A stretch of 64,000 nucleotides of DNA, from positions 33,730-97,729 of IMG/VR virus record IMGVR_UViG_3300033153_016044; one strand, written 5' to 3'. The position numbers were made by a program, and so were the translations under genes. The stretch is from a virus. The notes under the pieces were generated by a model, which saw nothing but the letters and a program-made list of their open reading frames with translations, ran no database searches and was not told where the DNA came from. Shown in pieces: positions 50,748-64,000 of the stretch (positions are counted from its first letter, which is position 1; each line of letters starts with the position of its first letter).

Positions 50748-50874
50748 TTGTATTCCTCTCAATTAAATCCTTTTGTGAGACCCCGGCGACAGTCTTATGA
50801 ATAACGTCAACAAAGTCAGGGGATTTTTTAGCTGTTAATCCGGTAGTAAACTCTATGTCAAATTTGTCTCTCAT
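50677..50874 (-). CDS. hypothetical protein (MRDKFDIE...)
   Basis: GAGGAG RBS; overlaps neighbours. Confidence 0.5.
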   Translation of the reverse strand: MRDKFDIEFTTGLTAKKSPDFVDVIHKTVAGVSQKDLIERNTIGEVKNSEDQLTDETEEQEEPNV

Positions 50875-51040
50875 TTTGACGCTTCTCCTCAAAGTATCTA
50901 TATGCATCAGACTTTTCGATGGTCTTTAGTTCTCCACCACAACCTTGTCCACATGCAAGCTGTTTCTGAGCTACCACTTTATTAGTAGACAGAAAGATGT
51001 TATCGCACTCTTCACACAATAAAAAAACTGTCTTTTTCAT
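50858..51040 (-). CDS. small zinc-ribbon protein
   Basis: CEEC...CGQGC; GGAGG RBS. Confidence 0.65.
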   Translation of the reverse strand: MKKTVFLLCEECDNIFLSTNKVVAQKQLACGQGCGGELKTIEKSDAYRYFEEKRQNERQI

Positions 51041-51050
51041 TGTAACCTCC

Positions 51051-51064
51051 AATAATTATACACC
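51051..51064 (-). promoter_or_regulatory. putative promoter GGTGTATAATTATT upstream of the sigma-terminase operon
   Basis: Motif copy immediately after a terminator. Confidence 0.7.
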
Positions 51065-51066
51065 AT

Positions 51067-51100
51067 AAAAAAAGACTCTTCTAATAAAGGAAGAGCCTAG
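51067..51100 (-). terminator. intrinsic terminator ending the RNR operon
   Basis: Minus strand AGGCTCTTC..GAAGAGTCT followed by TTTTTT. Confidence 0.75.
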
Positions 51101-51194
51101 AACTACTTAAATGTATTTTATTTAATCTTTTTCTCAACAATTTTTTCGCACTCTCCAACCACCAATACATTAGACAAGAGCAAGTCCAAAACAT

Positions 51195-51365
51195 TTAATC
51201 TTCATGGTCACATTGGATGCAACTTAAATGCCCCACCTTGGCGCGTGAGCACTCACAGTAAAGCTGGTCTCTGTAAGACTTTATCTCTCTCAGCAGAGCT
51301 TCTACCGACTCGGTCTCTCCACCACATATGATATCCCACGCTTCATCTTCAATAGTTCTACTCAT
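51195..51365 (-). CDS. small Cys-rich hypothetical protein
   Basis: Overlap-coupled ORF (MSRTIED...CEC...CIQC). Confidence 0.5.
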   Translation of the reverse strand: MSRTIEDEAWDIICGGETESVEALLREIKSYRDQLYCECSRAKVGHLSCIQCDHED

Positions 51366-51546
51366 CTTCACCACAACTCCTTGCGGCAATCCGCGCATCC
51401 TCATGCTTCCTTATTTCCAGCCCACAATAATCGCAGGTCATCGTGCGGTAATCAAATAGCTCGGATAATAATATCCTAAGCCCTTTGTAGTCACGCATTT
51501 GCATTATCTCAAACATGGTATTTTTAATAAGTTCTTCTTTTGTCAT
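51358..51546 (-). CDS. small hypothetical protein
   Basis: ATGA overlap with the upstream gene; CDYC. Confidence 0.55.
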   Translation of the reverse strand: MTKEELIKNTMFEIMQMRDYKGLRILLSELFDYRTMTCDYCGLEIRKHEDARIAARSCGEDE

Positions 51547-51743
51547 TCTATTACTCGCCTTTCGGAAAAGTTCTCTGACATAGTTTTAAGGAAGTCTTTA
51601 AGAATCTCCCCTTCCGTCCTGCCTCTTGTTGCACCGCAGGGGAACTTCCACTGCTTATTATTGACATAGAGTTCATAACCCTTATCATCCCCGGCTCTGG
51701 CTCCTCTATAGCAAACCTCAACTATCTCTATATTCTCAAACAT
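51543..51743 (-). CDS. small hypothetical protein (MFENIE...)
   Basis: TAATG coupling to the RNR stop. Confidence 0.55.
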   Translation of the reverse strand: MFENIEIVEVCYRGARAGDDKGYELYVNNKQWKFPCGATRGRTEGEILKDFLKTMSENFSERRVIE

Positions 51744-55857: not shown

Positions 55858-56112
55858 GTGAACATCACAGTAACTAAACACATCATCAAAGTAAGTGACC
55901 TAGTCACTTGTATCGTATGGCAGGATGATACGTCCATGATACTCAGGGTACATTTCCTTGCTGATGATGGCAAGGGATGTCCTGTAAGCACAGAGATGAC
56001 CTGCTCATCACTTGCTGCTCTGCCACCATTCAACGTGACAGAAGAAGAACATCTCAATCTCATGAATAACTGGTCATCACAACAAGACGTTCAACCCAAT
56101 CCAACCGCCTAG
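55858..56112 (+). CDS. hypothetical protein
   Basis: GAGGAG RBS, GTG start. Confidence 0.6.
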   Translation: MNITVTKHIIKVSDLVTCIVWQDDTSMILRVHFLADDGKGCPVSTEMTCSSLAALPPFNVTEEEHLNLMNNWSSQQDVQPNPTA

Positions 56113-56122
56113 GAGACACGAT

Positions 56123-56461
56123 ATGACACCGGCAGAAGCGTACGACAAAGTGATGAGCCTGGCGAGATGGGGCACTAAGCCAAAGAGTGTCCCCCAGACG
56201 CAAGACGCATCAAAGGGTATGTTGGCTCTGGCTGATTTGCTCAGGACCCAAGAGCCCGACATCTTCGATTTCATCATGGGGCTTGATGGCAACCCCCGTA
56301 TCCACAGCCTGTCCATCGGGTACGACGACAACATCACGTTCATGGTCGAGACGGGATTCGGGATGAAGGCGAACGACAAGATTCAGTCCCTCTGCTCGAA
56401 TCAGGGCTACGTGGAGGTCGCCTTCGAAGATGGCGCAGACATCGTGACGTGGTGGGCGTAG
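56123..56461 (+). CDS. hypothetical protein
   Basis: AGGAG RBS. Confidence 0.7.
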   Translation: MTPAEAYDKVMSLARWGTKPKSVPQTQDASKGMLALADLLRTQEPDIFDFIMGLDGNPRIHSLSIGYDDNITFMVETGFGMKANDKIQSLCSNQGYVEVAFEDGADIVTWWA

Positions 56462-56550
56462 TGACCATCTTCTTATTCTTAATCGGAGTGTTTCTACTGG
56501 TCATCACTCCCGCCGTTCTTTACTATCTCGCAAGCAACAACAAAGCCTAG
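56461..56550 (+). CDS. 29-aa single-TM peptide MTIFLFLIGVFLLVITPAVLYYLASNNKA
   Basis: TAGTG coupling; fills the gap up to the next RBS; not in the ORF track. Confidence 0.55.
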   Translation: MTIFLFLIGVFLLVITPAVLYYLASNNKA

Positions 56551-56559
56551 GAGGCTATC

Positions 56560-56985
56560 ATGAACAGAAGACCCACTCCGATACCAACAGCCCGACGATT
56601 CGAAGATAACAAGAGTAGGCATACTCGATACTGCAACGAGTTCGATTGCGGCAAGCCCACGAATAATAGCAAGCCTTTCTGCCAAATCCACGTCGAGTCC
56701 AATCCCTACGTCAAAGGAATTCGCATCGTCATCAATGAAAGGATAAAAGAGATTGAGATGGTCAATAAAAGAGGAAGGTTCTCCATCAACATCGAGGGAA
56801 GCATCGCCAAAGATATAATCCAACTTCTCACTATCTACGGCGAGTGCACCATCAACCGACTTGCAAGAGACATGAATCTCGACCTGTTCATCGCCAAGCA
56901 GTACGTGATTAAACTCAAGCGGAAACGATATGTGATGTTCAGAAAGACGACTCGTGGAACCCTCGTGATTCAGGCAGCGGCATAA
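56560..56985 (+). CDS. zinc finger (C-x3-C..C-x2-H) plus winged-HTH regulator
   Basis: AGGAGG RBS; CTINRLARDMNLDLFIAKQYVIKLKRKRYV wHTH. Confidence 0.7.
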   Translation: MNRRPTPIPTARRFEDNKSRHTRYCNEFDCGKPTNNSKPFCQIHVESNPYVKGIRIVINERIKEIEMVNKRGRFSINIEGSIAKDIIQLLTIYGECTINRLARDMNLDLFIAKQYVIKLKRKRYVMFRKTTRGTLVIQAAA

Positions 56986-57380
56986 TGGATATGGAAAAGT
57001 TCGAGGCTGATTGTGTCGCCGCCGATGCTCGACTCGAAGCGCATCGCGCCCGAGACAAATCAAAAGACGATTGGCCAGACCTAGACAAGAAATGCATCAT
57101 TGAACTCTGCGCCAAGCTGCTCAATCGGACGTACTCCGATGGATACGCCGCCGAAAAGGCGAGACTCAGCAAACACGCTCATCTCCAGACGATTGCACGT
57201 TACGCCACTGTCGCCGCCTTGTGCGCCATTGGTGTCGCCAATCATGACTGGGATGATGTCCAGAACGCCATCGGTTCTTTGGTCACCGTGAGCGGCGCCC
57301 CTGATTGGCGCTGGGCTCGTCATCAGAGACAGATACTCTATTCCCTGCGTCCCAGCAACATCTCCCCAAGTCGATACTAG
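56985..57380 (+). CDS. hypothetical protein
   Basis: TAATG coupling. Confidence 0.65.
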   Translation: MDMEKFEADCVAADARLEAHRARDKSKDDWPDLDKKCIIELCAKLLNRTYSDGYAAEKARLSKHAHLQTIARYATVAALCAIGVANHDWDDVQNAIGSLVTVSGAPDWRWARHQRQILYSLRPSNISPSRY

Positions 57381-57390
57381 GGTATCAGGT

Positions 57391-57500
57391 CAGGCTCCGG
57401 TGTTCAACCGGAGCCTGCACCGTGTTGGTGTTGGCTACGCCAACCTTGCTCTCCGACGGGACCTCCGCAACCTGGGAAGGTTTTACATTTCTGTGACACT
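57391..57500 (+). repeat. structured intergenic element, copy B
   Basis: CAGGCTCCGGT-GTTCA-ACCGGAGCCTG-CAC, GTTGGC-TAC-GCCAAC, TCCGACGGGAC. Confidence 0.8.
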
Positions 57501-57643
57501 TCGCCGTTTTATTATGGTTACGTTCGCCATTTTCCTTTTACATTTCCGTGACACTTCACCCCTGGGGTCGGGTATAATCCCCCAAAAAAAATTCTGAGAC
57601 GGTACACTTCTGTGACAATTCTCCGGATTGGAATCGTTACGCT
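57481..57643 (+). promoter_or_regulatory. three tandem activator-type promoters (boxes at 57481, 57536, 57603; -10 TACGTT, TATAAT, TACGCT)
   Basis: TACA-N4-YGTGACA followed 19-20 nt later by TAnnnT in each copy. Confidence 0.7.
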
Positions 57644-57729
57644 AGACGGGCGTCGCCTCGCAAGCGGGGGCGGCGCGCGTCGCCAGGTATCCACTGGGGC
57701 GCTGATACGCTTGAAAAGGGATTTTCAAA

Positions 57730-58428
57730 ATGGCTAAATTTTCTGATATGTTTGCTGTGGCGACTGAGGAGTTCAACAAAGGTGATACGAAGGGATTCGC
57801 GGCCTACGCCGATATGGTGGCCAAGGTCACCGGCTCGACTGCTGAGGATTTCCTCGCGGCCTTCACTCTCCATCGCGCCAAGGCGGCGCAGGAGTCTTCA
57901 ATCACGGCAATCAACGAGTTCGCCGCAACCCGAACCGTCACCAAAACGGTGATGGCTCTCCTCAACAAGTGCCACGACCACGTCAAGGCTTTCACTATCG
58001 CCGAAGTCAAGGATTCGGAAGACAAGGTTACGACACCGGGATACAAGCCCAAGCTGACCGTCGTGATTGAGTACACCCCCAGCACCGGCGAGGGGAACGA
58101 TATGGTCGCCGCAAAGGCGGCCTTCAAGGTGATTGCTGGCAAGGTCAGCACGCGCAGCGGAGGCGGCAAAGGCGGCACGAAGAAAGGGCGTATCAGCCTG
58201 ATGAACGCCTACAAGTGGGTAAACAAGAACATCGATGGTGGCGAGCGATTCAAGCTAGAGGCAGCCGACGATGGTGGCACCCGCTACTGGCCCGCTGGGG
58301 ATACCGGCGCTGGTCGATACATTCCTAATAAGGGATTGACCAAGTTCCTCCTCGCTGTCGAGAACGATTGCGAGACTCTGAATCACGCACGGTCCTACGA
58401 TGGGATGACCTCGCTTCGCAAGGAATAG
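57730..58428 (+). CDS. early basic protein, paralog of 54846..55448
   Basis: 232 aa; STRSGGGKGGTKKGR linker. Confidence 0.75.
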   Translation: MAKFSDMFAVATEEFNKGDTKGFAAYADMVAKVTGSTAEDFLAAFTLHRAKAAQESSITAINEFAATRTVTKTVMALLNKCHDHVKAFTIAEVKDSEDKVTTPGYKPKLTVVIEYTPSTGEGNDMVAAKAAFKVIAGKVSTRSGGGKGGTKKGRISLMNAYKWVNKNIDGGERFKLEAADDGGTRYWPAGDTGAGRYIPNKGLTKFLLAVENDCETLNHARSYDGMTSLRKE

Positions 58429-58435
58429 GGGATAC

Positions 58436-58466
58436 GGGGGCGGGGGCCGATACGGCCCCCGCCCCC
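58436..58466 (+). terminator. G/C hairpin after gene
   Basis: GGGGGCGGGGGCCG-ATA-CGGCCCCCGCCCCC. Confidence 0.6.
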
Positions 58467-58489
58467 AGCCTTGATTGATATGATAGAGC

Positions 58490-58553
58490 GTGCGGGCGTT
58501 CAACCGTATCACACCTGCCACTGACCCGCAAAGCCGGGTCAGTCCGATGGGAC
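58490..58553 (+). repeat. structured intergenic element, copy C
   Basis: GTTCAA..CAC, ACTGACCCG-CAAAGC-CGGGTCAGT, TCCGATGGGAC. Confidence 0.65.
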
Positions 58554-58642
58554 GGCTGGATACGGGGAATCCATGGACGATGGAGATATATCAAAAATCG
58601 CGATATGATATTATCAATCCATTATTAACATCTATCAAAACA

Positions 58643-58686
58643 TTTTACACTTCTGTGACACTTCCCCCTCAAGATAGTGTTACAAT
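58643..58686 (+). promoter_or_regulatory. activator-type promoter, copy 5 (TGn-TACAAT)
   Basis: TTTTACACTTCTGTGACA-N20-TACAAT. Confidence 0.7.
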
Positions 58687-58733
58687 CGTGATGCGGGAAT
58701 TCCCCGCTCTAATCCGAAAGGCAAGGCGATACG

Positions 58734-60227
58734 ATGCAAGGCAGCGAAGGCAAAGAGATTTTCTCGGTGAAGACACCGAACGATTACTGGCAAAAGGAGA
58801 TTGCCACTTATTACGATTGGCCCTACGCTTGGGGTCGCGAGATAGGGCAGAACTCCCTAGATGCTGGTGCTAAGAACATCAACATCACTCTGACTCCGGC
58901 AAAGGATATTCAACGAGACCCCGATAACGAGTGGAAGACAGATACGTGCTGGGTAGTGTGGGAGGACGATGGGTGTGGTATGGATAGGGACGACGGAGAA
59001 GGCAACCTAATCGTCTTTTCCAAGTTCCTCACCCTGGGCGCATCGCAGAAGAAGGATGGCGACACCGGGGGATTCGGGTGGGCAAAGAAGCTCATCTGCT
59101 TCGCGATGGTCGAGTGGCACATCAGGACCGGCACCCTTCATATCCACGGGGAGGGTGGTCAATACTGGACCGAAGACAATCTTGAGTACGTCGAGGGAAC
59201 GAAGATGCGGATTCGCGTTCCGGCAGCGACCTGGCGGATTCGGCGGAACATCGAGAAATGGCTCTGCTGGACCGATACCAAGGGCGCAACAGTGATGCTG
59301 GATGGTCGCGTCCTCAAAACCTTCGCCGATGTTGCAGTCAAGGGGACTCGCCCAATCCCCGGCGTCGATTGGGCCAAGATGACCGTGACTGAGGTCTCTG
59401 GTCAAAATATTATCATTCGGGCCAACGGCCAGATGATGAGCACGCTGAGCGGGAGCGATGACCAGAAGTACGTAGTGGTGATTGACGTGATTGGCAAGAG
59501 CACCGACCACTTCATGTCGAATCGCGACGGATTGAGGTCCAAGAGCAGAAACGAGATTCAAGGATTTCTCGACAGACTCTTCGCCAACCCCAACCGTATC
59601 TCCAAGCTCGACACTCCTATCTGCCACGATTACAGGGGTGGCAAGGGTGCGATTGAGATTGGGATTTGCGACGGTTCGGGCGCAGACCTCTCCTTCCTCC
59701 TCGAATCGGGAATCGACCTGGTCAAGATGTTGACTGAGCTATTCTCAAAGGAGCGCGGTTCCGCTGGGCACGATAGCTTCGACATCCACGTTCACAACGA
59801 GATGGAGGGTCACGAGATTCCCGAGCGATTCCTCCCCGGCACCTGGGACAAGAAGGCGATTAAGATGATGGCCGAGTGGTGCGCCCTCATCAAGTTCGTC
59901 GGAGAGGTCACCGGATACAACGGACCGATTACTCCGGGCTGGGTGTTCAGTCCAGGCACCACAGCGATGCATAAGCGCGGACACATTCTCCTCAATCCTC
60001 TCTACATAGATGACAAGACGTTTCAGGTTACTGACCGATTAGTCGGCACCGGACCCAGCTCCGATTGGAACTCGATGGTCACGTCTGTGGTCCACGAGTT
60101 TACCCACGCCCACGGCTATCACAACCATGACGTCCGATTCATTAGCGCGATGGGTATGTATTACGCCATGGTGATGGATAACGCCGAGGACCTCCAGGAA
60201 CTCCGCGATTCGTTCTACGGCTGCTAG
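58734..60227 (+). CDS. GHKL (Hsp90/MORC/MutL-like) ATPase fused to a C-terminal HExxH zinc-metallopeptidase-like domain
   Basis: REIGQNSLDA (N box), EDDGCGM (G1), GGFGWAK (G2), GTK; VHEFTHAHGYHNHD. Confidence 0.85.
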   Translation: MQGSEGKEIFSVKTPNDYWQKEIATYYDWPYAWGREIGQNSLDAGAKNINITLTPAKDIQRDPDNEWKTDTCWVVWEDDGCGMDRDDGEGNLIVFSKFLTLGASQKKDGDTGGFGWAKKLICFAMVEWHIRTGTLHIHGEGGQYWTEDNLEYVEGTKMRIRVPAATWRIRRNIEKWLCWTDTKGATVMLDGRVLKTFADVAVKGTRPIPGVDWAKMTVTEVSGQNIIIRANGQMMSTLSGSDDQKYVVVIDVIGKSTDHFMSNRDGLRSKSRNEIQGFLDRLFANPNRISKLDTPICHDYRGGKGAIEIGICDGSGADLSFLLESGIDLVKMLTELFSKERGSAGHDSFDIHVHNEMEGHEIPERFLPGTWDKKAIKMMAEWCALIKFVGEVTGYNGPITPGWVFSPGTTAMHKRGHILLNPLYIDDKTFQVTDRLVGTGPSSDWNSMVTSVVHEFTHAHGYHNHDVRFISAMGMYYAMVMDNAEDLQELRDSFYGC

Positions 60228-60344
60228 CCGTGAGTATCCCCGAAGACATTCAACACCTAGTCTCCGCCCTATCGGGCGGGGGCGTCCCTCTCCTGCCTGC
60301 CTCTTTAATCTCTACCTTTATCCTTGCGATAAGAAAGAAAGATA

Positions 60345-60530
60345 ATGGACACTCTTCATCGAATAAGCCACAGCACAATCTTCTGGCAAATCATGTTCTT
60401 CCTGATGAGCTGCATAGCTGTGACTAACTATGTTATCCGCCCCAGGGTAATCATCAAGACCGAACACATCTACCTTATTTACGAGCATCCGTCCGACGAA
60501 CACCCCATGATAGAAACGAGAGCGATTTAA
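60345..60530 (+). CDS. small membrane protein
   Basis: Hydrophobic IFWQIMFFLMSCIAV segment; TAATG coupling downstream. Confidence 0.55.
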   Translation: MDTLHRISHSTIFWQIMFFLMSCIAVTNYVIRPRVIIKTEHIYLIYEHPSDEHPMIETRAI

Positions 60531-60715
60531 TGGCTGCCCGACCAACGCCCAAGATGGGTATCTACGAACGCACGAAGGGAACACGTCTATGGAAGCGAGT
60601 GATGCCTGGCGCATCTGGCTCTCGCGACCTAATGGCTCGCACCTTCCAATCGTGGTTGATGTTCGCTCCCTCCAACAAAGAGCGCGCAATCCGCAAGATT
60701 CCGAGGACCAAGTGA
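60530..60715 (+). CDS. small basic protein
   Basis: Translational coupling at both ends. Confidence 0.6.
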   Translation: MAARPTPKMGIYERTKGTRLWKRVMPGASGSRDLMARTFQSWLMFAPSNKERAIRKIPRTK

Positions 60716-60831
60716 ATCACTATCACCTCAAACATCCCGACGGTCACGTTGTGACTATCTGGGTTCCTGACCACGTCTACATCGGCTCCTTTACCTACTG
60801 CTCCTGCAACATCGAAAGAAAGAAGAATTAA
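60712..60831 (+). CDS. 39-aa His/Cys peptide
   Basis: GTGA overlap. Confidence 0.5.
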   Translation: MNHYHLKHPDGHVVTIWVPDHVYIGSFTYCSCNIERKKN

Positions 60832-60833
60832 TC

Positions 60834-61007
60834 ATGCCCAAGACTCCAATCCTTACCAAACCCGGCGTCAACGTCACGATGGATGCCAATGGCTATATTG
60901 TTATCCGCTGGAAGACCCAGAGCCTCAATGGTGGCGGTCTCATCTACAACGAAACCTACCACGTTGATTGCGACAAGCGCATCAGCTGGTCGTCGAAGGT
61001 CATCTAA
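60834..61007 (+). CDS. 57-aa hypothetical protein (MPKTPIL...WSSKVI)
   Basis: Not in the ORF track; TAATG coupling to the next gene. Confidence 0.55.
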   Translation: MPKTPILTKPGVNVTMDANGYIVIRWKTQSLNGGGLIYNETYHVDCDKRISWSSKVI

Positions 61008-61186
61008 TGGAAGGCGACTGGACCATCGACGGCTGCCAGGTCGATATCACCATACCTATCCACGTCAGCGAGACACCCGTCCGCGAATCGGAGAAGAGAG
61101 AAATCAAGAACGAGATTCTCAAGGGCAACCGCGAGGGTATCCTTCACCACGGGACCATCAGCCAGCTAACTTGGAAGGTCATTTAA
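61007..61186 (+). CDS. 59-aa hypothetical protein (MEGDWT...LTWKVI)
   Basis: Coupled start. Confidence 0.55.
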   Translation: MEGDWTIDGCQVDITIPIHVSETPVRESEKREIKNEILKGNREGILHHGTISQLTWKVI

Positions 61187-61188
61187 TC

Positions 61189-61323
61189 ATGCCAGACTGT
61201 ATGTATTGCGGTCATCACTACAAAGGCCGTATCTACCCCTGTCCCGAGTGCGGGCCAGAGGAATCAGCCTACGACATCAAGCCTCAGCAGCAGGACGACT
61301 CTGACGATTGGGGGAATATCTAA
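61189..61323 (+). CDS. 44-aa zinc-ribbon peptide
   Basis: CMYC...CPEC. Confidence 0.55.
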   Translation: MPDCMYCGHHYKGRIYPCPECGPEESAYDIKPQQQDDSDDWGNI

Positions 61324-61514
61324 TGTTCCCTCGAATCGCCTCTCTCTCTTGCCGCATCGTCAACCTCCTGCCATACCCCGTATCGGAGTTCCTCGGCAGG
61401 CACGAAATCCACAACGAGAGGTGGGTTCGATACGGTGACGAGATTTACACCGAGGTCACTATCCTCGGCTTCCACGTCGCCCTGATTGGTAAGTATCACG
61501 AACTGAAGAAGTAG
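61323..61514 (+). CDS. 63-aa hypothetical protein
   Basis: TAATG coupling. Confidence 0.55.
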   Translation: MFPRIASLSCRIVNLLPYPVSEFLGRHEIHNERWVRYGDEIYTEVTILGFHVALIGKYHELKK

Positions 61515-61522
61515 CGGACCAC

Positions 61523-61558
61523 CCCGAGATGCGGTTGACCTGTTCAATCGTATCTCGG
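61523..61558 (+). other. 15-bp RNA hairpin (two G-U pairs) closing the early gene block
   Basis: CCGAGATGCGGTTGA-CCTGT-TCAATCGTATCTCGG. Confidence 0.65.
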
Positions 61559-61819
61559 CCGCACGCCCGATATGATAGTAAAAAACGGATTCCCAGTTCC
61601 TGTGAGATTCTGCTAACGCCTCTTGGATTGCATGTATCCTACAGAGCCACGCTCGATTGCTGCATATATGGATAGGAACCTCTCAGTGTATGGGGGGCTT
61701 TGTTACGTATATAAAGATGTTATGGAGATTATATGAGAAGAACCCCGTGGAAATCTCTTCTCTGTCCCAGGGTCGGTGTAAGCCAATGGATAACATCACT
61801 CCCTGGACTCCCTATGGAT

Positions 61820-61885
61820 GGGCCGTGTTCAACCAAAGGATACACGCGCAGATACCAGACAAGGCCCTGGTATCTCCGACGGGGC
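61820..61885 (+). repeat. structured intergenic element, copy D
   Basis: GTTCAA-N10-CAC, AGATACCAG..CTGGTATCT, TCCGACGGGGC. Confidence 0.65.
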
Positions 61886-62365
61886 GATACGATGGAACCC
61901 AGGAGATATATAAAGGACTTACAAGAAGATTTAATAAAGATTTCATGTAGAGCATTTGGGATTTCTGGGTGGGATGTGGTTGGATGGCATTAAATATTAA
62001 GCTAGGCACATCAGCTATGTAGAGAGATAGCAAATGAGACTTAACTCCTTATCTATCCGTAAAGTTCCCTTATATATCCCTAGGGACGAAGCTATAGTGG
62101 GGAGCCATCCTACCTTCTCTTTGTATAGGGGTTATCTCTATGGGATATGCTAGTAAACAAACCCCTTTCTCTATCCTATGTCACGGCGCGAACGGTGGCG
62201 CTCACGAGCCTATCTACCCCCTATCGGACACCTACATCATCCTAAGTCTAGCGATTAAACTACGCGCTCTCTGTGCGTCTGGTGCGTTTATATTTAACGG
62301 AGCCCTGATTTAATGGATAAATAGCCCAAAATCATAGGATTTATGCCCTCATCAAGCCAAATTCC

Positions 62366-62466
62366 CTGCCAAAATGGCAGATTTGACAGGCAAAACGGCC
62401 AAAACTGCCAAAATGGCAGGCCCAGGCGACGTAAACAAAGGAGTTACGCGCGGCACGGGGTTCGCT
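62366..62466 (+). promoter_or_regulatory. candidate sigma54 promoter (CGGCACG-GGGT-TCGCT) with two upstream CTGCCA-AAA-TGGCAG palindromes
   Basis: GG at 62452 and GC at 62464 give exact -24/-12 spacing; palindromes at 62366-62380 and 62405-62419. Confidence 0.6.
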
Positions 62467-62704
62467 CTAGGCAAGGCTCGGCCCGCCGGTACGTCCGCGC
62501 GGGTCGATGCGGCCCCCGCTATCGCGCGGGTCGCGCGGGACGGCTCGCGTATCTTCGCGAGATGTTCTTTCACAATTCGTATCGGCTGGCGCAAGGGACG
62601 GATGAAACCTTGCACAGTAGCGGGATTGCTATCTTCTTCGGTGTTTTTGCCGTGGTAGTGATTGCATGACGCGAGACGATATTTCGGCGAGGATTGATAC
62701 CATG

Positions 62705-63731
62705 GGGTTTTAATCCTACCTTCTTCTTCCCTTACGAGGGGATTAGATTGGCCTAGCCTAGTGCCAATGGTGCCGGATAACATTCGACTCGAAGATTGTA
62801 GCGTTTAGCGTAATCACTCCGGTCTAAACTTTGATGTGCGAACATCAGGACTGCTTTAGATACGGCTCCCGTCGGATGTCTGTGGCTGCGATTATTTGGT
62901 CAGTGTAAAACCTGATTGAGAATCGTAAGTGCAGATAGCTGGCGGAATCTGTTCTAGATGTGGACCTGATTAGTAGCCGCACGAGGGGGATAGACGATGG
63001 CTATGAATCAACATAGCTGAGATGACCTCTTATACCTGTAGGGGCGATTCAAACTGCATTCGATACGGTGATATTTGACAATTAGACGTTGCGTGCGTGA
63101 GGGATACAGCTGTAATCGCTGTGTCTTACACTCGATACGTACTTGCCAATTATATATCGACCCCGGAGACAAGTTAGGGATTTATTCCTAGCCTAGGTCC
63201 ACGATGGCAGTCGATGTATATGGTGTTGTGGTGACGAACACAGATTTAACTGTGCGGTCTAACTATTGTTGTCAGGATGGCAATAATCACAACACTAGGA
63301 TGTCTTAGACGGCATTGTAGCAGGGACGTTGAGATAGCGCTGACAGTTAGGGCAATAAGAACCTATCGTAACGATGTTGGGCAACCTACCCCGGATTTAT
63401 TTCTAGGATGACCCCGACAGGCGACGATAGCAGGCAATTGTGGCACAAATCCACGGGGTGAGTAAACATCCTAGCCTAGCTGCGTAACGTGGTGCTTTTT
63501 CATCAGAAAGCACAATCTGTAATGCGACATTAGCCCGCTCTATCGACAGTAGAGCCGGTGTCCATCATAGACAGATTGAGCCTGGGCGGAAGGGTCATTC
63601 ACCGATGACACGGGTGATGAAACTAGTACCAAGCCAAATCAGGACACTTTCTCGATTTACGAGAGACACCGGGTGGCGGTGATAGGTGAGACTCCTATGT
63701 GTCCAATCTTCTTAACCTTGAAAGGGTTAAT
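62705..63731 (+). ncRNA. candidate large (about 1 kb) highly structured non-coding RNA
   Basis: No track ORF in any frame between 62784 and 63733; more than 15 adjacent or nested stems rich in G-U pairs on the + strand; GNRA, T-loop-like and repeated (A)UUUA loops. Confidence 0.7.
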
Positions 63732-63733
63732 CC

Positions 63734-64000
63734 ATGCTTCAGATAACGTTTGTTAAGACGGGTAAAACCGTCGATTTCTCTCTTGCGGTTCCATCGCATG
63801 TTGTTTCTGACCAAATCAGGGAGAACAGGGAGCCGATGATGATTCATCTAGAGGATTGCGTCGTCGCCGTCGATTACGACTCCGGTTCGATTGCTGCACT
63901 CAATGTGCTTGAGGTCGATTGCGCCAAGAAAACGGGATTGAGTCCCGAACTAATCGAGAACATCTTGGCTCTGGCGATTAACGACAAAGAATCCTACGAC
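63734..64000 (+). CDS. partial hypothetical protein (MLQITFVKTGKTVDF...), runs off the window
   Basis: Open frame from ATG 63734 to the end; GAAAGGG RBS. Confidence 0.65.
   Translation, partial: MLQITFVKTGKTVDFSLAVPSHVVSDQIRENREPMMIHLEDCVVAVDYDSGSIAALNVLEVDCAKKTGLSPELIENILALAINDKESYD

Follow-up and report, generated by a model that had tools for sequence, protein, structure and literature searches.

The window analysed here, a stretch of 64,000 nucleotides, forms the right-hand part of a 97.7 kb IMG/VR record, and both end at the same position. The record is labelled a provirus in IMG/VR, has a CheckV completeness of about 62%, and belongs to a tailed phage with terminase, portal, major head protein and ribonucleotide reductase genes, all encoded on the − strand. 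From about 54.8 kb onward, small + strand genes form a block, and a long stretch devoid of reading frames lies at the end of this block. No ORF in any of the six frames exceeds 54 aa between positions 62784 and 63733, which bears out the original prediction of about 950 nt without an ORF. A scan of the 97.7 kb shows that this is the longest stretch of the record lacking an ORF of at least 60 aa, the runner-up being 309 nt long. Recoding of the stretch (TAG as Q, TGA as W, TAA as Q) opened no credible frame. Immediately downstream starts the gene of a 104-aa orphan protein (63734-64000, + strand), cut by the record end.

Base composition varies along the record. The last ~8 kb (window 56000-64000), comprising the + strand early block and the RNA region, has a GC content of 52%, compared to about 41% in the remaining genome; the RNA region itself has 47.9% versus 42% for the genome. 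The record contains no GATC site where about 355 are expected, and GATC is also absent from two terminase relatives of 12.5 kb and 21.3 kb and from the 5.7 kb homologous contig described below, while counts are normal in more distant relatives. Such avoidance across the lineage points either to a GATC-specific restriction system or to Dam-dependent targeting as the source of the pressure. As it is common to the 56000-64000 module and to the rest of the record, both belong to the same entity, even though the composition of the module differs. Upstream of the ORF-free stretch, the ORF-poor segment 60300-62000 is likely to contain several small genes on the + strand (44-97 aa), one of which (around 61190-61323) has a zinc-ribbon end of the CxxC...CxxC type. 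Further upstream, a 497-aa protein (58734-60227) shows a weak GHKL/HATPase_c match slightly under the Pfam cut-off and has no relative in IMG/VR according to a peptide-pattern search. A second stretch of 980 nt without an ORF of at least 80 aa (50763-51742), with GC falling to 29%, displays no folding excess on either strand (z from +1.4 to −2.7).

A scan of JGI metagenomes with the alignment of the 104-aa protein returned one locus, on a metagenome contig of 5,690 nt with a GC content of 53% (hereafter L012). The arrangement is the same as in the window: related small genes are followed by at least ~1.1 kb devoid of ORFs (none reaches 60 aa between 4240 and 5277) and by the 104-aa gene. Positions 62940-63998 of the window are 73% identical to L012, with further aligned blocks extending back to 62366, and parts of the segment 60300-62000 are 78-83% identical at the nucleotide level. 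The core of the ORF-free region (63020-63300) reaches 78-90% identity, against 68% nucleotide identity for the adjacent coding sequence. The pattern of substitutions is that of non-coding DNA: mismatches in the RNA region are distributed over the three phases as 100/111/93 and most indels are of 1 nt, whereas those of the adjacent coding sequence are biased towards the third codon position (25/17/43). The one small ORF of the core (63204-63308) meets a stop after its fifth codon in L012. The upstream ORFs 62343-62669 (+ strand) and 62352-62783 (− strand) were likewise discarded, having no protein-level conservation in L012; a block match of 14 aa is due to nucleotide conservation.

Searches for further members of the family indicate that it is very rare. 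No homolog was detected among the INPHARED phages by blastn or tblastn, and no further copy in IMG/VR by flanking-protein searches and three conserved-block patterns, nor in GTDB genomes by one conserved-block pattern and the protein alignment. The five terminase relatives in IMG/VR are short fragments from which the RNA is absent, and the record contains no second copy. A 22-mer match on another contig fell in unrelated coding DNA. The phages carrying the family probably form a rare lineage of large tailed phages.

The predicted minimum free energy of positions 62705-63731 is −359.3 kcal/mol for the + strand and −279.0 kcal/mol for the − strand. Set against 30 dinucleotide shuffles, the gain is 47 kcal/mol for the + strand (z = −4.75), whereas the − strand yields a z-score of −0.57. 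Seven coding controls of 1027 nt each, folded in the mRNA sense, range from z = +1.26 to −3.42. Local z-scores over 200 nt reach −5.3 in the RNA region, but scores of −4 to −5 are likewise seen in about 4% of coding windows (values below −3 in 2 out of 50). Because coding sequences can also reach such low z-scores, thermodynamics alone is supportive, not decisive. In each of the two sequences, 13 of the 113 helix pairs common to both are G.U, and one-sided changes of the G.U to A-U or G-C type, in either direction, fix the + strand. This agrees with the original argument that the G-U pairs point to RNA read from the + strand, the only one with a folding excess.

We evaluated the conservation of the structure by comparing the window with its homolog. 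To prevent circularity, one sequence was folded alone, its pairs were projected onto the alignment, and the other sequence was scored. The numbers of double changes that keep a pair are 31 for the window fold and 35 for the L012 fold, compared to 14.2±3.1 and 15.1±3.3 when partners are permuted within pair type, with none of 2000 permutations reaching the observed values. Fewer pairs are broken than in the permutations (80 versus 105.4±4.6 for the window fold and 76 versus 111.2±5.0 for the L012 fold). When partners are slid by 1-5 columns, a control that preserves local substitution rates, 37-38% of double changes keep pairing, compared to the observed 60% and 70%. Compensatory changes between the two homologs thus exceed both controls. 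The RNAalifold consensus has an energy of −227 kcal/mol on the + strand against −151±6.6 for column-shuffled alignments (z = −11.5), a z-score of −4.6 on the − strand, and 43 compensatory pairs versus 21.7±5.1, on an alignment of two sequences, which RNAalifold overfits and which stands below R-scape-grade covariation statistics. In the helices whose pair probability exceeds 0.2-0.3 in each of the two independent partition functions, there are 24 double and 15 single changes. Local folds also give the same hairpins on different sequences in the window and in L012, with GNRA loops kept.

All the stems quoted in the original prediction are present in the window, and most of them find support in L012. 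Two compensatory pairs are seen in each of the stems GCTATG/CATAGC and AATCTGT/ACAGATT, one compensatory and one wobble change in TGGTGTTGTGGT/ATCACAACACTA, and two changes between G.U and A-U in GGGATACAGC/GCTGTGTCTT. The long hairpin formed by CCGTCGG... and ...CTGGCGG contains about ten compensatory pairs. In the GNRA hairpin, GAUGU-GCGA-ACAUC of the window corresponds to UUAGC-GAAA-GCUAA of L012, and covariation is also seen in the terminal GAAA hairpin. As the stem CTATCGT/ACGATAG is invariant, it is uninformative either way. Two of the quoted stems, TCTAAA/TTTAGA and GTGCTTT/AAAGCAC, are lost in L012 and give way to covarying alternatives, namely the long hairpin 62847-62967 and a long-range helix UUCAUCA/UGAUGAA (63499-63505/63615-63621).

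The resulting model of the RNA (62570-63730, + strand) comprises five domains. Domain 1 (62570-63071) is closed by a long-range helix, 62570-62584/63061-63071, which has a probability of at least 0.41 in the independent folds of both sequences and includes one compensatory pair (C-G to U-A). A second helix, 62643-62652/62820-62829, is also predicted in both independent folds. The interior of this domain contains a variable-length hairpin (62705-62745), ~40 nt longer in L012, the GNRA-capped hairpin (62830-62846), the irregular hairpin of 35 bp at 62847-62967 with its ~10 compensatory pairs, and a hairpin at 63000-63017. It is followed by the most conserved core (63072-63316), with 78-90% identity to L012, which contains a hairpin with a GUAA-containing loop (63098-63134), an arm of 16+7 bp (63151-63220) and a three-way junction (63225-63293) including the invariant hairpin CACAG-AUUUAA-CUGUG. 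Domain 3 (63317-63483) is closed by the helix 63317-63324/63475-63483 with two compensatory pairs, and holds CUAUCGU/ACGAUAG, a 12-bp stem with three compensatory pairs and the hairpin 63456-63471. In domain 4 (63499-63621), the closing helix UUCAUCA/UGAUGAA becomes UUCGCCA/UGGUGAA in L012 and encloses the stems 63513-63578 and 63594-63609, the latter with four compensatory pairs. Domain 5 (63642-63704) is a three-way junction with GGACAC/GUGUCC as its closing helix; of its three hairpins, two covary (UUUCUC/GAGAGA to UCUAUC/GAUAGA, and AUAGG/CCUAU to GCGGG/CCCGU). The 3'-terminal hairpin (63712-63730), UUAACCUU-GAAA-GGGUUAA, corresponds to the stem AGUCUU-GAAA-GGGACU in L012.

The sequence CCTAGCCTAG occurs in three exact copies within the RNA (62752-62761, 63187-63196 and 63470-63479), where 0.1 would be expected genome-wide. 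The L012 counterparts read CCTAGCCTCG, CCTGGCCTCG and CC-AATCTAG, the first two sharing an A-to-C change. The repeated words are thus mostly not kept in the homolog: at the RNA level, the three exact copies of CCUAGCCUAG read CCUAGCCUCG, CCUGGCCUCG and CC-AAUCUAG in L012, and only one GAUUUA loop is retained. The structural contexts of the copies differ and no common pairing partner was found for them. A pattern of two copies separated by one nucleotide, CCTAGCCTAG-N-CCTAGCCTAG, matched three contigs, all unrelated.

The 5' boundary of the RNA had been placed at 62705 and has to be moved upstream. As the conserved blocks 62570-62652 pair with 62820-63071, the RNA starts at or before 62570, where the conserved structured region begins or which it already includes. 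The extended −10 element proposed upstream of the former limit, TGA-TACCAT (TGATACCAT, 62695-62703), consequently falls inside the RNA; L012 reads TGAGACCGT at this place and the element is unconserved. Other candidate signals lie further upstream. Two identical palindromes, CTGCCA-AAA-TGGCAG (62366-62380 and 62405-62419), are 39 bp apart and may be regulator sites; their half-sites are kept in L012, 40 bp apart, with a different centre (CTGCCATTTTGGCAG and CTGCCATTTTGACAT). A sigma-54-like −24/−12 element on the + strand (62451-62466, CGGCACG-GGGT-TCGCT, with GG-N10-GC) is a candidate promoter. L012 keeps GG-N10-GC (CGGTCCC-TGGC-TTGCG), its −24 half matching less well. No sigma-54 activator or enhancer-binding protein is encoded in the 97.7 kb record. 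Between this element and the RNA, a GC-rich (~60%) non-coding segment (62470-62560, + strand) contains the conserved blocks GGCTCGGCCC and GGGTCGAT and is possibly the 5' part of the transcript; the homologous segment of L012 ends with a 61-nt insertion. Taken together, the conserved palindromes and the GG-N10-GC element point to a regulated promoter, possibly of the sigma-54 type; if that element is used, transcription would start near 62478. We saw no obvious promoter of its own that would mark the RNA off as a separate gene.

At the other end, no terminator was found between the RNA and the 104-aa gene. The protein has three relatives, with 70, 66 and 46% identity, and a profile search of 1.84 billion representative proteins places its family in only 8 representative clusters. 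Both ends are invariant in the family, with MLQ..FVKTGKT.DFS at the N-terminus and EEFF.DF..RF.P at the C-terminus. The protein belongs to no Pfam or PHROG family, its AlphaFold model is of low confidence (pLDDT of 47), and the Atlas offered no useful lead. The only Shine-Dalgarno-like sequence of the gene (AAAGGG), 7 nt before the ATG, is located in the loop and 3' arm of the terminal hairpin, which is predicted with pair probabilities of 0.93-0.97 and has a stem that covaries in L012. Other genes of the phage have strong Shine-Dalgarno sequences of the AGGAG type. The core (63075-63099) might in addition pair with the start codon and codons 4-8, at a probability of only 0.3-0.37 and with mixed comparative support. 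Since the RNA runs without a terminator into the gene and holds its Shine-Dalgarno sequence in the last hairpin, it may be, or may also be, a giant 5' leader.

No known RNA family accounts for the region. A cmscan of the whole window against Rfam 15 gave nothing at the gathering score, and with E-values up to 10 allowed for positions 60000-64000 the only match was a weak one of the pemK RNA motif (RF02913) at 63638-63700. With 23.9 bits and E = 0.27, it remains under the gathering score of 34.8 and is ascribed to chance, as it is not reproduced at the homologous place in L012. The covariance models of GOLLD (RF01998) and ROOL (RF03087) have no match with E up to 10 in the window region or in L012, and no Rfam match was obtained for OLE, HEARO, raiA, RNase P, tmRNA, 6S or group I/II introns, nor for riboswitch families or known aptamers. 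ARAGORN detects no tRNA or tmRNA anywhere in the 97.7 kb record, the window included; this record is ~62% complete. These searches agree with the original prediction, which did not recognise the RNA as GOLLD, ROOL, tmRNA, RNase P or an intron.

Few known classes of bacterial or phage RNA exceed ~500 nt, among them rRNAs, RNase P, tmRNA, group I/II introns, OLE, GOLLD, ROOL, HEARO and raiA. At 1,160 nt or more, non-coding and with a structure that covaries on the basis of two sequences, the RNA described here has the features of the large ornate non-coding RNAs. Many GOLLD and ROOL loci adjoin tRNA islands. The present locus shares their phage context (terminase, portal and head genes) and has no tRNA in the ~62%-complete record. 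GOLLD RNAs are encoded by phages and prophages, and are ornate and multi-domain, with many members above 800 nt, no known protein partner and an unknown function (PMC12286853). Like them, the RNA is phage-encoded, larger than 1.1 kb, multi-domain and unevenly conserved. It differs from GOLLD in matching no model, in showing no nearby or embedded tRNA genes within the ~62%-complete record, in being known from two copies, and in running into a protein gene with the Shine-Dalgarno sequence in its last hairpin. ROOL assembles into cages made of RNA alone and held by kissing loops and A-minor contacts (PMC12286853). The present RNA resembles ROOL as a large, structured RNA from a phage with multiple junctions, and is distinguished from it by about twice the size, the lack of an Rfam match and of a tRNA island in that record. 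Speculatively, a conserved loop with a CUAG palindrome (62752-62756 region) could form a symmetric kissing loop.

Other large or phage-encoded RNAs are more distant. OLE, raiA and HEARO are chromosomal or transposon RNAs with characteristic partner genes (oapA/B/C; IscB). The present RNA is likewise long, GC-enriched and intergenic with extensive conserved structure, yet matches none of their models, and these partner genes are absent here. The phi29 pRNA (RF00044), an early phage RNA of ~120-174 nt that forms a multimeric ring by loop-loop pairing, is also structured and phage-encoded; the RNA here has at least 1,160 nt, no Rfam match, and comes from another type of phage. With Shine-Dalgarno-sequestering leaders (riboswitch platforms, RNA thermometers) it shares a covarying Shine-Dalgarno hairpin immediately before the start codon. 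Such leaders measure from tens to a few hundred nucleotides, and the present RNA is far longer and matches no known aptamer. A published screen of IMG/VR for structured RNAs reported motifs of only 29-151 nt (PMC10690425) and would therefore miss this RNA as a whole.

As the region is non-coding, strand-specific, rich in compensatory changes within its conserved boundaries, and absent from Rfam, all of this established computationally, a new family of large phage RNAs is the best reading. The new class of the original prediction thus holds as to its non-coding nature, + strand specificity, conserved structure and lack of an Rfam family, and fails as to its boundaries and promoter; from the sequence we infer that the region is transcribed from a promoter and has some function. 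We consider, with somewhat better than even confidence, that 62570-63730 (+ strand) specifies a conserved structured RNA with several domains, at least 1.16 kb long and outside the Rfam families, that is functional in its own right. The most serious competitor is that the RNA is solely a giant cis-acting 5' leader, controlling transcription elongation or translation of the 104-aa gene and of the genes that follow, for example by means of the 3' hairpin that sequesters the Shine-Dalgarno sequence and perhaps by pairing of the core with the start region, with no function in trans. In the absence of a terminator and of an obvious own promoter, a leader fits as well as a non-coding RNA. The RNA is positioned directly upstream of the gene at both loci and would be co-transcribed with it, and regulator-type palindromes lie upstream with no intervening ORF; the Shine-Dalgarno sequence is firmly paired within a covarying hairpin, 3 nt ahead of the ATG region, and CAUGC at the start codon has its complement in the core segment GCGUG, which becomes GCAUG in L012 (a G.U to A-U change). 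This last pairing has a low predicted probability, however, and two of its pairs break in L012, while the 3' hairpin is weak (−5 to −6 kcal/mol). With at least 1.16 kb and five domains, the RNA is moreover, to our knowledge, several times the size of any bacterial or phage cis-regulatory leader, and it matches no riboswitch. Its core is also more conserved than the gene supposedly regulated. The size, the junction-rich architecture and this higher conservation lead us to favour a functional RNA in its own right, and to regard an exclusive role as leader as unlikely, albeit worth serious weight.

Conservation of non-coding sequence cannot by itself separate RNA from DNA, and the conserved palindromes and GC-rich repeats just upstream might suggest an element acting in DNA instead of RNA, for instance an origin of replication, a site of packaging or recombination, or a single-stranded DNA structure. 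Double-stranded cruciforms would however signal symmetrically on both strands, whereas the folding excess is asymmetric; G.U pairs and their one-sided changes to or from A-U or G-C would be A.C mismatches on the opposite strand, GNRA tetraloops are conserved, and long-range helices span ~500 nt. We therefore find an element of this kind improbable. Slightly less credit still goes to a degenerate or unusual mobile RNA missed by the models, such as an ORF-less group I/II intron, a retroelement template or a transposon guide RNA. Introns are frequent in phage genomes, and the large size, the multi-domain architecture and the GNRA loops would be in keeping with this origin. Against it, neither sequence has an Rfam intron, ribozyme or HEARO match with E up to 10, no exon halves flank the region (the upstream side is non-coding and the downstream gene has its own conserved N-terminus), no reverse transcriptase is encoded in the record, and the RNA is present there in single copy. 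Equally slim is the chance that the region is a neutral or recently exchanged spacer, its structure resulting from coincidence and fitting. Two sequences only are available, one coding control reached z = −3.42, and phage mosaicism can raise local similarity. Yet compensatory changes beat both the permutation and the slid-partner controls on structures predicted without the second sequence, the same helices emerge independently from differing sequences, and conservation is higher in this non-coding DNA than in the gene next to it.

If the RNA is functional in its own right, as we favour, its expression might proceed as follows. Transcription would run rightward from a regulated promoter within 62420-62560, with the sigma-54-like −24/−12 element and the two conserved palindromes upstream as candidate parts, and the transcript would read on, with no terminator, into the 104-aa orphan gene. 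The RNA would fold into its five domains, with long-range closing helices, GNRA caps and several three-way junctions, and could be ornate in the GOLLD/ROOL sense, acting as a scaffold, in an assembly or in an RNP, possibly with the adjacent small protein. Its 3' hairpin would additionally occlude the Shine-Dalgarno sequence of the 104-aa gene, and through this occlusion the RNA fold probably also gates translation of that gene. More specifically, it is plausible, if short of an even bet, that the RNA founds a new class among the ornate RNAs of phages, forming an RNA machine, a self-assembling scaffold or an RNP with the 104-aa protein during early infection by large GATC-avoiding phages.

Large RNA classes with known roles have revealed new biochemistry. 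GOLLD, ROOL and OLE build RNA-only assemblies, which are nanocages in the case of GOLLD and ROOL (PMC12286853). As the founding member of a new ornate class, the RNA would be larger than GOLLD; if it is a leader instead, no structured cis-regulator known from phages would come near it in size. In both cases, the locus supplies a candidate regulated promoter together with an RNA and a partner gene that are both defined. A further phage RNA class above 1.1 kb, unrelated to the others, would lend itself well to cryo-EM and may help to understand what phages use giant RNAs for.
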